The notes beneath the pieces were generated by a model. That model was not told where the DNA came from, searched no databases, and worked only from the letters and a program-made list of their open reading frames with translations. Made by a program: the position numbers and the translations under genes. DNA of 4,609 nt from a virus (taxonomy: Monodnaviria > Loebvirae > Hofneiviricota > Faserviricetes > Tubulavirales > Inoviridae): the IMG/VR virus record IMGVR_UViG_2563366830_000001, positions 1 to 4,609 of that record. One strand, given 5' to 3'. Below, one piece after another: positions 1 to 4,609 of this stretch. Each line of letters starts with the position of its first letter. Position 1 is the first letter of the stretch.

Positions 1-201
1 TCAATAAGTTGGAGTCATTACCCCAGAAAAGCACTTCGCATCACTCAGATATGATTTAACATAATATACATTATGCGCACCAATGGTAAGGATGGCAGAA
101 ACTGGTTGGAATCGTTGATTGACTTTATTTAATTCAAGCTCTGACCCTGCGAAAGCACATGAAGAAAATAGTAGCGTTAATGCGAGTAAAATCTTTTTCA
201 T
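1..201 (-). CDS. Small ORF with N-terminal signal peptide, partial (runs off window start); reads through dif, so possibly a phage-chromosome chimera
   Basis: Start ATG at 199-201 overlaps the pI stop as TAATG. N-terminus MKKILLALTLLFSSCAFA/GSEL has a basic n-region, hydrophobic core and AXA-type cleavage motif. Residues 41-50 (GAHNVYYVKS) are encoded by the dif 28-mer itself. Confidence 0.4.
   Translation of the reverse strand: MKKILLALTLLFSSCAFAGSELELNKVNQRFQPVSAILTIGAHNVYYVKSYLSDAKCFSGVMTPTY
54..81 (-). other. dif: dif site (XerC/XerD site-specific recombination target); probable prophage attachment junction
   Basis: Plus strand 54-81 reads ATTTAACATAATATACATTATGCGCACC. Its reverse complement, GGTGCGCATAA-TGTATA-TTATGTTAAAT, is a 28/28 match to the canonical E. 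coli dif 28-mer as I recall it (XerC arm, 6-bp central region, XerD arm). The XerC arm (71-81) faces the prophage genes; the XerD arm (54-64) faces the left flank. Confidence 0.85.
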
Positions 202-1226
202 TATTTTTTCCCCGTATAAAGCGTCACACGCTCACCATCAATAATTCCGCTCATCAACATCCCTTTATAATTAAAACTGGATGCAGGAACGGCACGCAAA
301 ACACCGGCACCGTTAACAAGAATCACAAACGCCCTGCCTTCACTGGTCATTCTCCCTGATATACGCCACTCGGTTGAAAGTGACGGTTCAGCTGGTTCTG
401 AGGGAGTATCTGGTGCAGGAGTAGCAGCGGAAGAACGAAACATGGCCGCATCACGTACATCTGTTGTAGCCAAATCTGGCGAGGGATCGCTTCGGCCAAA
501 CGTGCTGAAAAATGAGTAAATCAGCCAGCCTGACCCGATAAACATCAATGGAAAAAGCACAAGAAAGAACCTGACTTTGCCAGAATTCCAGATGCTCTGG
601 CGTTTATCTGTCTGCTTTTCATTACCGTTATTTCCTTCATAGCTTTTATAAAGTTCAAAAATATCAGGGTTATATTTATTGCGATAACTGGTGACGAGGT
701 TGCTTTTATAGATTTTGTGGCCTGAATATACGTCAATGCAGTAATGATTATTCAGGCCCAACGCTTTCAGCTTGCGCATCCGGTAAGTTGTTTCTATTTT
801 GTCTTTCAGAAAGCGAGCAATATTAGAAAGTGACTGATTTACAATAACCAAATCACAGCTAATACCCGTTTCAGGGTGCGTAAAATGACGATGTTCAGCA
901 ATAAATGATTTCTTCTCAGCCGTCATATCCTTATCGCTACCGAAGATTCGCCATGCTTCATCAATAACAATTAAATCACCAAACTGGCAAAAGCTCCCTT
1001 CCCCACCTTTAAAAGGAAAGAAATCTGCTTTAAGTACATCATCATTATCCACAACAATAATTTCTCCCGTTGCATCAGGATAACGTTCGGTGATTTTATC
1101 TTTTTGTAAACCATAAATGTTCGTCACAACTCTCCGGCCGCTGGTAAATGCAGGAATAATGACATTGCAAACGGCTTCATAACTTTTTCCTGAGCCGGGT
1201 ATGCCAATATATGCAGAAATAGCCAT
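201..1226 (-). CDS. Zot-family / filamentous phage assembly protein pI (P-loop NTPase)
   Basis: 341 aa. Walker A GIPGSGKS at residues 8-15 (nt 1182-1205); Walker B-like LIVIDEAW at residues 85-92; single predicted transmembrane helix (VRFFLVLFPLMFIGSGWLIYSFF, residues about 218-240) followed by a Pro/Ser/Thr/Ala-rich linker and a C-terminal domain. This is the architecture of the Zot/pI family. Start is 3 nt after the pVI-like stop. Confidence 0.9.
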   Translation of the reverse strand: MAISAYIGIPGSGKSYEAVCNVIIPAFTSGRRVVTNIYGLQKDKITERYPDATGEIIVVDNDDVLKADFFPFKGGEGSFCQFGDLIVIDEAWRIFGSDKDMTAEKKSFIAEHRHFTHPETGISCDLVIVNQSLSNIARFLKDKIETTYRMRKLKALGLNNHYCIDVYSGHKIYKSNLVTSYRNKYNPDIFELYKSYEGNNGNEKQTDKRQSIWNSGKVRFFLVLFPLMFIGSGWLIYSFFSTFGRSDPSPDLATTDVRDAAMFRSSAATPAPDTPSEPAEPSLSTEWRISGRMTSEGRAFVILVNGAGVLRAVPASSFNYKGMLMSGIIDGERVTLYTGKK

Positions 1227-1229
1227 AAC

Positions 1230-1517
1230 TCACCCTATAACAGGAATACGTCGAATAATAAAACGAGTAGCCATTGAGGAGATAATCATACTAATCCCCT
1301 GTGGTAATTTACTCAGGTTAATGAAGTACCAGAATCCGTCTGATAAATTGGCAAACAGCGATGAGAGATTGCTTGAATCTGGCAGTAACTCAACAAGGAT
1401 TTCAACGAAGCCCTGGACTACAAAATACAGCGCAAAGAATACGACGAATTTAATAATCAATGACCGGAATACAAAACCTAACAAAGTATTTAATGCACTA
1501 ATCAGAATCCCAAACAT
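1230..1517 (-). CDS. pVI-like minor coat protein (small hydrophobic virion protein)
   Basis: 95 aa, very hydrophobic N-terminal half with two predicted membrane segments; size, composition and position between the pIII-like and pI-like genes match gene VI of Ff phages. A strong Shine-Dalgarno AAGGAG (reverse complement of 1524-1529) sits 6 nt upstream of the ATG and overlaps the pIII-like stop (TAAGGAG). Confidence 0.6.
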   Translation of the reverse strand: MFGILISALNTLLGFVFRSLIIKFVVFFALYFVVQGFVEILVELLPDSSNLSSLFANLSDGFWYFINLSKLPQGISMIISSMATRFIIRRIPVIG

Positions 1518-1529
1518 AGTTGCACTCCT

Positions 1530-2984
1530 TTAGGCACTCAGAATAATACGGAGCGCAACAAATCCCCATATAATCAGAAATATGGTTTCTACGGCGCTTC
1601 TGTTCTGCTCAATTAACGGACAATGGGAGTCAATTCTGTACTGGTGATTAAACACGCTGAATTCAATAACGGGGCAGGATGCTGAACGAGAGCCGATGTT
1701 AAATTCGTTTGTAAAAGGCAACAAGTTAATAATTGGCGTTAAAATATCTCTTGCCGTTGGCGTTTCTTCAAGCTCAGGCTCTTTTACACCGGGATCTTCT
1801 CCCAAATCTATATTGCCATTATTTCCAGTGTCAGATCCTGAGTTGTTATTAATGGTAATATCAATATTGACGTCAGCCCCTGCACTGTCAGATACAGGTG
1901 AAAGCATATCTAATAACGTTGGAGATAGCCTAAGTTCCGACATCGCAGAAGTTACTTCAGCCGGTGAAACCTCTTTAAACGGTAAGCCGTTATAATCGGC
2001 ATTAACGGCAGCTTCAGACCACAGCTCGTTAATCATGTCGGCAAGAAGTGCTGGCGATACACTAACACTATCAAGATACTCCAGATAATCAATCATGGAC
2101 TCAATATTTCCGGCCTCCAGTACTTCCGTCATGGCTTTATATTTGGTATTGGTCCAGATAGTAAGCTCACTCTTTTCATCAATATCTTTTGCGGTGTAAT
2201 CCTCTTTTTCAGGAACGGCGCAAATCGTCGAATATCCACCATTTGACTGATTAGTCGTTTTACAAGGCGTGTTGTGATACTGATATTGCTTTCCTGCTGT
2301 TAAATAAGCAACGCTGTAATACATGGGAAGCCCTGCTACATTTTCATACATGGGAATACCTGCGGGAAATGAAGATGCGGCCGGGTTGCTATACAAGTGT
2401 GTAATCTCAGGTATTTCATAAAATGAGGAAGGATAAGTAAACTTATAATTCTGTTCAGTAAAGGATACATCTCCATTACTGTTGACAACTTTATTCGTCA
2501 CAGTGCGTTCAAAATTCGTTAGTGTTTCAGTATAAGTACGCGAGTTATAGTCATTAAGATAATTTCTGGCAATTTCAGTTGGATTATCACCATAGTAATA
2601 AATTAGCTCTTTCGAATCCTGATAATAATAAAGCGCATTATCTGGCGTGGAATATCCTGTTTCAACACCTACAACTGGAGAACCCGCATCCACATTATTA
2701 CGACTAACATGAAGGATTACCGGACTTAATTCCTGTGGTTCAAAATTAACGGTTATCGTCTTACTTTCACCACTTTGACCACTGTACGTTACTTCATATA
2801 AATTATCGGAAATCTTTTTACCGTTAGTCATTACCATTACCGAGCCGTCAGATGAACTCAAAGAAGACGGAACAAAAGATGATACAGCAGCAGCAATACC
2901 CGCCCACGTTGTGACCTTGCAAAAACTTTGACGGATTGCCGTCAATATAGAGATGTGTTGCCCGACCTTCGCCATCAGATCCAA
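1530..2984 (-). CDS. pIII-like adsorption / minor coat protein; true start codon uncertain
   Basis: 484 aa in the longest ATG-initiated frame. Gly/Ser/Asn/Asp-rich linker (NNNSGSDTGNNGNIDLGEDPG) between domains; C-terminal Cys-containing segment followed by a hydrophobic anchor (TIFLIIWGFVALRIILSA) as in gene III proteins; located immediately upstream of the pVI-like gene. The first ~45 residues are not a classical signal peptide, and a signal-like segment (KVTTWAGIAAAVSSFVPSSLS) is internal. Confidence 0.7.
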   Translation of the reverse strand: MDLMAKVGQHISILTAIRQSFCKVTTWAGIAAAVSSFVPSSLSSSDGSVMVMTNGKKISDNLYEVTYSGQSGESKTITVNFEPQELSPVILHVSRNNVDAGSPVVGVETGYSTPDNALYYYQDSKELIYYYGDNPTEIARNYLNDYNSRTYTETLTNFERTVTNKVVNSNGDVSFTEQNYKFTYPSSFYEIPEITHLYSNPAASSFPAGIPMYENVAGLPMYYSVAYLTAGKQYQYHNTPCKTTNQSNGGYSTICAVPEKEDYTAKDIDEKSELTIWTNTKYKAMTEVLEAGNIESMIDYLEYLDSVSVSPALLADMINELWSEAAVNADYNGLPFKEVSPAEVTSAMSELRLSPTLLDMLSPVSDSAGADVNIDITINNNSGSDTGNNGNIDLGEDPGVKEPELEETPTARDILTPIINLLPFTNEFNIGSRSASCPVIEFSVFNHQYRIDSHCPLIEQNRSAVETIFLIIWGFVALRIILSA

Positions 2985-3141
2985 CAGATCTTACTTTCAT
3001 AGTGGATTCATACGAACCGCGAACGGTCAACCGTTTTACTGTTTCCCACTCCACTGCACCGTCAGCATCAACGCTGACGACACTACCAGCCGGTAATGGT
3101 CGGTGTATGCAAGGTAGGATCCCGGTAAACCAGTCAATCAT
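2848..3141 (-). pseudogene. Truncated N-terminal fragment of gene II-family rolling-circle replication initiator
   Basis: 97-aa ORF beginning MIDWFTGILP... with ...HLYIDGNPSKFLQGHNV. As I recall it, M13 gene II protein starts MIDMLVLRLPF... and has ...EYHIDGD...KVLQGHNVFG at a similar distance from the N-terminus. Family-like sequence ends right after LQGHNV (about nt 2905), then 16 non-family codons and a stop; full-length gII proteins are about 400 aa. Good Shine-Dalgarno (GAGG, reverse complement near 3149-3152) upstream of the ATG at 3139-3141. Confidence 0.6.
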
Positions 3142-3308
3142 GTATCGCCTCAGAGAACAATTTTGTGACCAGAAAGCCTGTCAAGAGCTTATTAGTACCA
3201 ATTCAGTCACACAAATGTACCACCCAAGATCTTACCTCTCAAGTGATTTTGTACTGGATAAGTGACATATTTGTTCTTTTGAAATGGAGCAAAAAAGTAG
3301 GATATAGA
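3142..3308. promoter_or_regulatory. Divergent intergenic control region between replication-initiator fragment and HTH regulator (putative promoters/operators)
   Basis: 167-bp non-coding gap flanked by divergently oriented start codons (3139-3141 minus, 3309-3311 plus). Contains repeated GTGAC/GTCAC-containing motifs (3165-3169, 3206-3210, 3262-3266; AAGTGA at 3241-3246 and 3260-3265). Individual -35/-10 elements could not be assigned confidently. Confidence 0.35.
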
Positions 3309-3761
3309 ATGAGCAACAACTTCAACAGTAATGGCTACCCGGAAGAAATGGCAGAAGACATAGACTTACAGCGGGCAGAAAGGATAAAAAAAGCGATCCT
3401 AAGCAAATTCACATACGAAAGGATGGAAGAACTGTCTGGCATCAACATTGGCACACTGAAACGGATCGCAAACGCACAGAGGGATGCGAAAATCAGTGAG
3501 CTGGAAAAAATTGCTGAAATCACTCAGACAGACATATTTGAACTGATTTTTGGCTCCAGTAGCAGTGATATCTACGATTCCAGCAAACGCTTCTTTGAGA
3601 CGAGAAGTAAAGATGCGGCTCAGGCGGCTCAATTCATCATCTACAATCTTCGTACCCTTGATGATGAGGACATCCTTTGTTTGGGGAGGGTTTCGAGTGC
3701 CTTGCAAACAGCAACAACATCAAGAAAATGGGATGAGCTTTTCGGGAAGAAGAAAGGCTGA
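3309..3761 (+). CDS. XRE-family helix-turn-helix transcriptional regulator, putative prophage repressor
   Basis: 150 aa from the ATG at 3309, which has a Shine-Dalgarno (TAGGA at 3298-3302) 6 nt upstream; the longer frame from 3165 has no such signal. Segment ...TYERMEELSGINIGTLKRIANAQRDAKISELEKIAEITQTDIFELIFG has the pattern of an XRE/Cro-CI-type HTH domain. It is divergent from the replication gene, as rstR is from rstA in CTXphi. Confidence 0.75.
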   Translation: MSNNFNSNGYPEEMAEDIDLQRAERIKKAILSKFTYERMEELSGINIGTLKRIANAQRDAKISELEKIAEITQTDIFELIFGSSSSDIYDSSKRFFETRSKDAAQAAQFIIYNLRTLDDEDILCLGRVSSALQTATTSRKWDELFGKKKG

Positions 3762-3806
3762 GTCTCAGAAATGAGACAAACGTGCAGTATTACCAACACT
3801 GCACGT
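3762..3806 (+). terminator. Two adjacent inverted repeats directly after the regulator stop codon; possible terminator and/or protein-binding site
   Basis: GTCTCA-gaaa-TGAGAC (3762-3777; 6-bp stem, 4-nt loop) and ACGTGCAGT-attaccaac-ACTGCACGT (3780-3806; 9-bp perfect stem, 9-nt loop). No T-run immediately follows the second stem (TTTTT only at 3821-3825), so it is not a textbook intrinsic terminator. Confidence 0.35.
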
Positions 3807-3845
3807 TCTGGATTGAGCGATTTTTAAACACCAGAAAAAGGGTAA

Positions 3846-4244
3846 ATGATGAACAAAACAGTGTATGTACCAAGCTACTTCCAGCCTATCTACAAAGAAG
3901 TAACCATCAAAGTTCCTACCGGAAACACAAAACGATTCCTGGGTCTCATCGACATTGAAGAAAAAATCCGAAAAAGAGAAGTTATTCAGGATGGCTGGTC
4001 TGATTGCCAGATTGACGGGGAAAGACTCAATGAAGATGTTGGTCGAGCCATTAATAAACTTAATCGGGAAGGGTATGAGGTTATTTCAATAACCCCTGCT
4101 ACCTCAGGAAGCTGGGCTTATAAATATAAACAAAACAGTATTCGTAATGGAAACGGTGATGGCAGTTATGGATATGGTTACGGTTATTCATACACCGAAG
4201 GCGTTATGATTCTGGCAAAGAAAATTGAGAAAGAGGACGTCTGA
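3846..4244 (+). CDS. Hypothetical soluble protein (132 aa) with C-terminal Gly/Tyr-rich repeat; first gene of a two-gene cassette
   Basis: Uninterrupted ORF with a purine-rich ribosome-binding site (AAGGG, 3837-3841) upstream of tandem ATGs (3846, 3849). No predicted transmembrane segment. The C-terminal half (GWSDCQIDGERLNEDVGRAINKLNREGYEVISITP...) may resemble a small DUF-type domain (DUF4177 is my unverified recollection). GNGDGSYGYGYGYSY at residues 102-116. Confidence 0.7.
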   Translation: MMNKTVYVPSYFQPIYKEVTIKVPTGNTKRFLGLIDIEEKIRKREVIQDGWSDCQIDGERLNEDVGRAINKLNREGYEVISITPATSGSWAYKYKQNSIRNGNGDGSYGYGYGYSYTEGVMILAKKIEKEDV

Positions 4245-4246
4245 TA

Positions 4247-4609
4247 ATGGATTTTATCCGTAAAACTTTGGGTGGATTAAAAGCAAGTTATTATATCCGT
4301 CACTTCGTTTTTGGTGCATTAATTTCAACTTTCTTTATTTACATGTCAATGCAAAATCCTGGAGGGGTGAAGGTTGAAAATATAATTTTCTTTTTTATCA
4401 ATGCGTTACTCTACCCTTACGCAAGATTTGTATATGAGCAAATCATTGGGTTCATCATGGGTGAAAATGTCTTTTTCATCAACGTCATAGTGATGCTAAC
4501 TGCCAAGATAATTACGATGTGTTTATGCTGGATATTTTCAGTATTCATAGCGCCAGTTGGATTGATATATCTCTACTATTATCATTCAAAAGCTGATAAA
4601 CAATTATAG
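4247..4609 (+). CDS. Small multi-pass membrane protein (120 aa); second gene of the cassette
   Basis: ATG at 4247 lies 2 nt after the upstream stop (TGATAATGG) with Shine-Dalgarno AAGAGGA (4231-4237). Three to four strongly hydrophobic segments (e.g. HFVFGALISTFFIYMSM, IIFFFINALLYPYARFVYEQIIGFIMG, VFFINVIVMLTAKIITMCLCWIFSVFIAPVGLIYLYYY). Stop codon TAG at 4607-4609. Confidence 0.7.
   Translation: MDFIRKTLGGLKASYYIRHFVFGALISTFFIYMSMQNPGGVKVENIIFFFINALLYPYARFVYEQIIGFIMGENVFFINVIVMLTAKIITMCLCWIFSVFIAPVGLIYLYYYHSKADKQL

Follow-up and report, generated by a model that had tools for sequence, protein, structure and literature searches.

Gene content of the window

The window, that is, the whole stretch of 4,609 nucleotides analyzed here, matches the genome of Escherichia coli MS 196-1 (NZ_CP146681.1) over its full length with two single-nucleotide polymorphisms (SNPs), and contig KE137256.1 of the draft assembly GCA_000408725.1 is 100% identical to it. 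The MS 196-1 locus (L001) is situated between IS1/ydeT and hipA. It was compared with the locus of E. coli strain SW070919 (L002), which carries an intact prophage. The following features were identified:

1 to 22: terminal inverted repeat of the neighboring IS1, whose IS1A transposase coding sequence ends at L001 8007; the sequence of positions 1 to 22 is presumably the IS1 end
1 to 201, minus strand: 66-residue chimeric open reading frame (ORF) composed of pIV secretin codons 1 to 27 (N-terminus identical through V27), then the prophage end, dif and flank
54 to 81, minus strand: chromosomal dif (28/28 match in a pattern search), the XerCD integration site bounding the prophage
118/119: second deletion junction, at which secretin codon 28 follows directly on the first 52 bp of the prophage (its left end); 2,069 bp are missing and microhomology is absent
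201 to 1226, minus strand: pI/Zot assembly ATPase, full length (PF05707, E = 2.2e-26; one amino acid difference from the intact relative)
1230 to 1517, minus strand: pVI-like minor coat protein (DUF2523), full length (PF10734, E = 1.4e-19; one amino acid difference from the intact relative)
1530 to 2910, minus strand: pIII/PuvA-like receptor-binding minor coat gene, N-terminally truncated, residues 112 to 570 of 570 (homologues of 570 to 581 residues; phrog_3942; "missing N-terminus" in RefSeq)
2848 to 3141, minus strand: 97-residue chimeric ORF with an ATG start (from the ORF list), a truncated initiator of the gene II/X family (PF05144 match)
2848 to 2910, minus strand: out-of-frame tail of the stub, 20 codons and a stop, from pIII DNA
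2910/2911: deletion junction, 2,069 bp missing, microhomology of 1 nt (G)
2911 to 2984, minus strand: accidental upstream extension of the pIII frame in rep DNA (TTG at 2984, ATG at 2975), not the native start
2911 to 3141, minus strand: rep-derived part of the stub, codons 1 to 77, identical in alignment to the intact 350-residue rep
3142 to 3308: putative divergent rep/regulator control region with a 13-nt inverted repeat (3157 to 3169 and 3206 to 3218)
3309 to 3761, plus strand: intact helix-turn-helix (HTH) transcriptional regulator in an RstR-like position (phrog_3557, E = 1.4e-68; weak HTH_3 match)
3846 to 4609, plus strand: two accessory ORFs, of 132 residues and of 120 residues (a membrane protein), in a variable att-proximal cargo slot

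An initial annotation had credited the element with intact pIII, pVI and pI reading frames. This holds for pVI and pI, which are full length, but not for pIII, which is without codons 1 to 111. The regulator protein has the same accession (WP_000069317.1) here and in intact relatives. The region between rep and the regulator contains a promoter-like site on the minus strand and, by analogy with the rstR-rstA region of CTXphi, probably acts as a control region. A search of the whole window against Rfam gave no match.

The replication initiator

The 97-residue product matches the Pfam family PF05144 (Phage_CRI; Replication-associated protein G2P N-terminal) with a score of 84.3 bits (E = 1.4e-23; the curated Pfam cut-off is 21.7). 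The match covers stub residues 1 to 81 and positions 1 to 83 of the 232 in the model, and the N-terminal G2P domain is incomplete to that extent. Residues 1 to 77 are identical (77/77) to the N-terminus of the 350-residue rep of the intact relative, after which the two sequences diverge. The earlier description of an initiator reduced to an N-terminal stub is confirmed by both results. That description had extended the family-like part to FLQGHNV, at about nt 2905. The degenerate tail beyond it is real, but the true break comes about 6 nt sooner, at 2910/2911, after His77 and inside the conserved LQGH motif. The "NV" following LQGH is a chance frameshift product that mimics the Ff motif LQGHNV. 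The tail of the stub, NVGGYCCCCIIFCSVFFEFI, is encoded by pIII-derived DNA read in the wrong frame; in the pIII frame, the same DNA (2848 to 2910) gives about the first 20 retained pIII residues, starting with residue 112. The ORF, made of 77 native and 20 out-of-frame residues, is presumably a dead fragment.

Between the intact rep and M13 gpII there is an alignment (E = 3e-07) that starts at the LQGH motif and extends to the C-terminus; a sequence search of the PDB with the intact rep returned no solved relative. In this alignment Tyr-197 of M13 gpII, named as the residue covalently linked to the nicked strand in the passage of PMC5405960 that cites Asano et al. 1999, pairs with Tyr175 of the intact rep, 98 residues past the native part of the stub. 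The C-terminal domain PF05155 (G2P_X_C) is found by Pfam in the 350-residue relatives and is absent from the 97-residue product. Thus the stub shows G2P homology and lacks the three other initiator features considered, namely a full N-terminal domain, the catalytic tyrosine and the C-terminal domain. Since the equivalent of the catalytic tyrosine and the PF05155 domain are both missing, the stub is predicted to be incapable of acting as a functional rolling-circle initiator.

A database entry for the exact protein already exists under EFI90485.1 ([quoted passage not shown]), and at its place in MS 196-1 RefSeq has a pseudogene, [quoted passage not shown].

The rep/pIII deletion junction

A three-way comparison of the junction with both of its flanks in the intact L002 locus defines the missing segment. 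The window aligns up to 2911 with L002 up to 10958, and from 2911 onward with L002 from 13027, which leaves 2,069 bp absent; positions 2911 to 4609 correspond to L002 13027 to 14725 at 99.88% identity. The 1.5 to 2.5 kb that had been estimated to be absent agrees with this value. The deletion, its endpoints, the identity of the genes lost and its recurrence in independent assemblies are direct observations.

Between the regulator and pVI, the SW070919 prophage encodes the 350-residue rep, a 105-residue protein of PF17426 (Putative_G5P), an 83-residue membrane protein, a 77-residue protein of phrog_2186 (annotated as a virion structural protein) and pIII. A single deletion of 2,069 bp, probably by illegitimate recombination, joined rep codon 77 to pIII (PuvA-like) codon 111. 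It removed rep codons 78 to 350, the gene for the G5P-like ssDNA-binding protein, the 83-residue membrane-protein gene and the 77-residue coat gene, together with a small hydrophobic ORF and pIII codons 1 to 111. An internal deletion from about gII codon 80 into the 5' region of gIII is what had been proposed from the window, and the breakpoints obtained by alignment with relatives bear this out. The gene set of the intact relatives likewise supports the proposed loss of the gV-like gene and coat genes along with the remainder of gII, which left a remnant defective in replication and coat. The rep-side breakpoint lies just 3' of a significant stem-loop (ssDNA folding, z = -3.3). When the four breakpoints were folded in the same way, a hairpin was also found at the secretin breakpoint (z = -1.8), and the rep-side structure alone is significant. 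Folding as a cue for deletion is suggested by these structures, not decided by them.

The pIII gene was affected from the other side of the same junction. The mechanical ORF at 1530 to 2984 is true pIII from nt 2910, and its 24 upstream codons are rep DNA that is open by chance. The native start lies within the deleted DNA (L002 11289). In the intact relative, RefSeq places pIII as 520 residues from a GTG, but from an ATG the same frame can be read for 570 codons. Homologues of 570 to 581 residues from a search of a large protein collection, down to 36 to 40% identity, align from residue 1, which indicates that translation and conservation extend over the N-terminal region with its hydrophobic stretch TVYSFIFSFLWVSF. 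Hence pIII lost its start codon and the N-terminal hydrophobic segment (codons 1 to 111) in the deletion. In RefSeq the gene adjoining the stub is a "hypothetical protein; missing N-terminus". Gene callers choose an internal ATG at 2837, giving a product of 435 residues that would be without any export signal. We rejected a functional pIII starting from ATG 2975 with a chimeric signal peptide, as the conserved N-terminal 111 residues are missing; no convincing Shine-Dalgarno sequence precedes this ATG. The overlap of the stub with the start of the pIII-like ORF, pointed out in the initial annotation, does exist in that the same DNA is open in another frame, but that start is accidental and consists of rep DNA. 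The overlap (2848 to 2984) is a by-product of the fusion.

Family and integration site of the prophage

Prophages of the CUS-1/YpfPhi family are about 8.7 kb long with 13 ORFs in two divergent transcription units and form tandem arrays at dif (PMC4266046). Based on its site, 99.9% identity and collinearity, the element is an inovirus of this type, integrated by XerCD at dif. Eight other complete genomes have the same prophage at 99.9% identity, about 4.1 kb longer over the matched span. The prophages of UTI89 and 82.0311 have the same full layout as that of SW070919 and are 99 to 100% identical across shared phage genes; the 80 nt of the pIII flank of the junction are 100% identical to the UTI89 (O18:K1:H7) prophage. 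A DNA search of a phage collection with the intact 8-kb unit found no named close phage, only uncultured inoviruses with 65 to 69% identity over Zot and the secretin. As comparators, CUS-1/YpfPhi had been named rightly, whereas If1/IKe, suggested alongside them, are not relevant.

What the window lacks of the family is the complete replication/ssDNA-binding/coat/pIII module. From this gene content, the prophage would be unable to nick an origin, coat ssDNA or build a filament by itself. YpfPhi with its homologous replication gene disrupted gives no phage particles (PMC4266046), and by likeness to that mutant, virions are probably lost here as well. The missing rep, G5P and coat proteins could come in trans from a helper inovirus.

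Tandem array and order of events

MS 196-1 has two tandem prophage copies, and the window is the left one. Measured from site to site, the units are as follows:

L002 6032 to 14881: intact unit, 8,849 bp, full gene set
L001 12765 to 19545: copy 2 (form B), 6,780 bp, without the rep/pIII segment
L001 8054 to 12765: window copy (form A), 4,711 bp, without the rep/pIII segment and without a second segment

Two further dif sites are imperfect, with 8 mismatches and a conserved XerC arm; one separates the two prophage copies (L001 12765 to 12792) and the other is on the hipA side (19545 to 19572). The second deletion took two small ORFs and nearly all of pIV, and copy 2 of this genome still has the segment (L001 12830 to 14898) that the window copy is missing. 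A tandem structure is seen again in contig L006 and in metagenome scaffold L010. Several contigs (among L003 to L009) read from hipA through one copy of 4,711 bp and dif into IS1; they represent arrays that were collapsed, or else derivatives from which homologous recombination removed one repeat.

As for the order of events, we infer that the rep/pIII deletion came first because both copies have its junction, and for the same reason the array must have formed, or been homogenized, after that deletion. The deleted prophage would then have become tandem, either because a second circle integrated or by an exchange between sister chromosomes, Xer-mediated or homologous. In the last step the dif-proximal copy would have lost its secretin region, and the remnant would since have persisted by vertical inheritance.

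The same array can be read in another way, with forms B (6,780 bp) and A (4,711 bp) as helper-dependent miniphage circles, that is, defective-interfering replicons that existed beside an intact CUS-1-type phage and integrated separately, one after the other, at dif. Two nested deletion forms in tandem with a common rep/pIII junction are in line with such a history. So is the position of the more deleted form, which adjoins the intact dif and with it the expected site of a new XerCD integration, as are the retention of the att hairpin and the control region and the dynamic behavior of YpfPhi arrays, which take in incoming copies (PMC4266046). However, the array arises more simply if one deleted prophage was duplicated and then suffered another deletion, and there is no evidence of episomal contigs. 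No further half-junction match was found in MS 196-1, which means that this genome has no intact copy of the phage, and a helper of the CUS-1 type is likewise lacking there. We therefore regard serial integration of miniphages as improbable. If it were true, the deletions of 2,069, 2,069 and 2,072 bp, the last from another strain, could reflect a nonrandom process guided by length or structure.

Deletions in related prophages

Internal deletions of 2,072, 2,897, 2,601, 2,454, 2,163, 697 and 92 bp occur in the same prophage in other strains, and their junctions, among those in which an overlap could be read, show microhomology of 2 to 6 nt. Two independent deletions end in one small hairpin at secretin codons 19 to 28. 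Decay by replication slippage or illegitimate recombination fits these data and appears to be frequent in CUS-1-type prophages.

Oddly, both deletions of the window copy are exactly 2,069 bp long, and the sequences removed are unrelated. The flanks of the two junctions share only a loose CGTTG / TGAC resemblance, and no dif-like site was found at the breakpoints. Offset gene conversion, dimer resolution and a folded-circle geometry were considered for the equal lengths and rejected, as they predict a compensating duplication or are without nucleotide precision. A general rule of equal lengths was rejected as well, on account of a tandem array in another strain with unequal deletions of 2,897 and 2,601 bp. 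The match of 2,069 with 2,069 is left as a coincidence of roughly one in a thousand, as no mechanism enforcing it was found.

Persistence and recurrence of the remnant

With the prophage taken as a deletion remnant, one may ask whether it is kept for a benefit to the host, through superinfection immunity conferred by the regulator, an effect of the cargo ORFs or action of the stub as a competitor for origin binding. Arguments in favor are the regulator and the cargo ORFs, all intact and without a difference from their counterparts in intact phages, the partial protection from superinfection that a resident YpfPhi confers (PMC4266046), and the frequent sampling of the lineage with the remnant. 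Yet the deletion is very recent (99.9% identity), so that intact frames are expected without selection; at such a level of identity to the intact phages, the integrity of pI and pVI is uninformative on selection either way. There are 5 SNPs in 4.5 kb relative to intact phages, and all three that fall in the pI-pVI-pIII block are nonsynonymous. PADLOC, run on the regulator, the cargo ORFs and the stub, returned only marginal HTH matches, and the stub itself ends within a conserved motif and has a random tail. Selection for host benefit is accordingly improbable.

The rep/pIII junction is present in one of 5,426 complete E. coli genomes, namely MS 196-1, where both tandem copies have it. Outside complete genomes it occurs in the draft GCA_000408725.1 and in gut-metagenome scaffolds. 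The exact 97-residue protein is found in 70 contigs, and the index of encoding contigs lists 120 blocks from isolates and human-gut metagenome assemblies. This bears on the question of whether the short rep could be an artefact of assembly, through a collapsed tandem repeat or a chimeric join. A tandem repeat beside IS1 is a classic source of misassembly, and several short-read contigs do show one copy only. On the other hand, the identical junction is found in a complete genome, an independent draft and several metagenome and SRA assemblies, and repeat collapse cannot create junction k-mers. Within one lineage, the junction recurs in numerous isolates and in gut metagenomes, and so it is not an assembly artefact, an explanation to which we give hardly any weight.

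The alternative raised in the initial annotation, a true inovirus whose layout is radically different, here compact and with a minimal initiator, can be dismissed, as it has nothing beyond the appearance of the window itself in its favor, against the full layout of the near-identical prophages of SW070919, UTI89 and 82.0311, the rarity of the junction among complete genomes, the break in the LQGH motif, the absent tyrosine equivalent and a pIII without its conserved N-terminus. In our view, the stub is very probably explained by a deletion scar in a CUS-1/YpfPhi-family prophage at E. coli dif, and the element is in all likelihood a dead remnant.

Comparison with known systems and implications

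The element resembles CUS-1 of E. coli O18:K1:H7 and YpfPhi of Yersinia pestis in its dif integration with one intact and further imperfect sites, in the tandem arrays, in the divergent regulator/rep control region and variable cargo slot beside att, and in the gene order rep, ssDNA-binding, coat, pIII (PuvA), pVI, pI (Zot), pIV secretin (PMC4266046). It differs from them in that the window copy is without the 2,069 bp from rep codon 78 to 350 through pIII codons 1 to 111, and without another 2,069 bp that comprise two small ORFs and nearly all of pIV. Its cargo ORFs (132 and 120 residues) also differ from those of the UTI89 prophage.

Compared with the gene II protein of the Ff phages (M13/f1/fd), the stub has only the first part of the shared Pfam domain, with neither the nicking tyrosine nor the C-terminal (gene X) domain. 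Nor can it be likened to gpX, the C-terminal product. Degraded arrays of the CTXphi type in Vibrio cholerae (pre-CTX, RS1, truncated prophages) are similar in being XerCD-integrated and tandem, with members that differ by deletions and can be defective. RS1, however, keeps a working rstA and is mobilized by a helper, whereas the initiator is destroyed here, and no close sequence relationship exists. Ff miniphages are likewise internal deletion derivatives that arise by illegitimate recombination with little or no homology. In contrast to the present element, which is known only as a chromosomal insert, they are episomal and helper-dependent and keep their origins and packaging signal.

This is ordinary prophage decay and nothing of a new kind; both genes are already entered in RefSeq as partial pseudogenes, and beyond getting the annotation right, little depends on it. 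The public 97-residue "replication protein" and the 435- and 484-residue "pIII" calls are pseudogene fragments. The survey of sister strains points to internal deletions of 2 to 3 kb as a frequent route of decay for CUS-1-type prophages. In the MS 196-1 lineage, the dif-resident CUS-1-type prophage is predicted to be dead, as initiator, ssDNA-binding protein and major coat protein are all lacking and the receptor-binding pIII is truncated; the strain is accordingly not to be listed among the producers of this fitness-associated filamentous phage.

A second deletion in the window copy

The left copy of the prophage array carries a second illegitimate deletion, at window 118/119, which among the copies of the array occurs in this one only. 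The junction fuses the first 52 bp of the prophage to codon 28 of the secretin (pIV) gene, and we therefore identify the following reading frame as what remains of secretin.

1-201, minus strand: 66-aa ORF, a secretin signal-peptide stub that reads through dif into the flank.

The segment lost at 118/119 comprises two small ORFs and pIV, and the genome still has all of these in its copy 2. This deletion and the one at 2910/2911, which joins the replication initiator (rep) to the pIII gene, are unrelated, and each is exactly 2,069 bp; a mechanism for the equal lengths was sought and none was found. A third, independent deletion, in the related prophage of another strain (L013), measures 2,072 bp, and in the array of a further strain (L014) the deletions differ in length, at 2,897 and 2,601 bp. 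The related prophages L013, L014, L015 and L017 are differing deletion derivatives of the same prophage, including an in-frame rep::pIII fusion, pIII::secretin fusions and a Zot truncation. A hairpin at secretin codons 19-28 is the common endpoint of two independent deletions.

Among independent assemblies of one lineage, L006, L010 and L001 contain two units in tandem, [4,711 bp][6,780 bp], and others within L003-L009 have only one copy, of 4,711 bp, which extends from hipA to dif. The difference between tandem and single-copy assemblies suggests either copy-number change via homologous recombination or collapse of the array during short-read assembly.

Comparison with the intact relative

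The window differs from the intact prophage of strain SW070919 (L002) by five SNPs, at window positions 1100, 1327, 1667, 4426 and 4562. All three in pI, pVI and pIII are non-synonymous (D43N, Y64F, I/V) and the two in the 120-aa cargo ORF leave its amino acids unchanged, numbers too small to interpret. Two features of the relative concern its coat genes, one of them a possible coat gene.

L002 9577-11289, minus strand: pIII/PuvA-like gene, counterpart of window 1530-2910.
L002 11220-11342: unannotated 40-aa hydrophobic ORF.

Judged from sequence, the GTG start of the 520-aa RefSeq pIII/PuvA-like protein appears to be placed 50 codons too far downstream; the 570-aa product from an upstream ATG is backed by homologues at 36-40% identity. 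The 40-aa ORF is possibly a pVII/pIX-like minor coat protein.

In the protein collection, all other members of the 90%-identity cluster of the 97-aa rep stub are DUF2523 (pVI-like) proteins, an apparent oddity of database clustering with no biological link.

Cargo slot and control elements

The att-proximal cargo slot is variable within this prophage family, and the slot at window 3846-4609 holds defence-like genes in two related prophages.

L014 3754-4825: DpnII-MboI-like and DUF6953 genes.
L015 5848-6777: AbiJ_NTD4/Abi_C genes.
Window 3778-3808: strong hairpin of 14 pairs, terminator-like, separating the regulator gene from the first cargo ORF.
Window 3157-3218, between rep and the regulator gene: inverted repeat of 13 nt, a possible operator.

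For the window's own cargo ORFs (132 aa, and the 120-aa membrane protein), PADLOC gave no match and Pfam no informative match.

Integration site

Window 1-22 is what we take to be the last 22 bp of the IS1 terminal repeat. The attachment features and a neighbouring ORF follow.

Window 54-81, minus strand: perfect chromosomal dif, 32 bp beyond the IS1 end.
L001 12622-12690, just right of the window: unannotated ORF for a hydrophobic 22-aa product (MSMETGVAIIILLVIVGKLIGL); its Shine-Dalgarno sequence is good, and it adjoins the hairpin below.
L001 12713-12772, just right of the window: long imperfect hairpin abutting an imperfect dif-like site.

The hairpin and dif-like site together match the folded XerC/XerD attP proposed for YpfPhi. 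The window prophage sits at the replication terminus, adjoining hipBA, and is one of the elements that exploit Xer.
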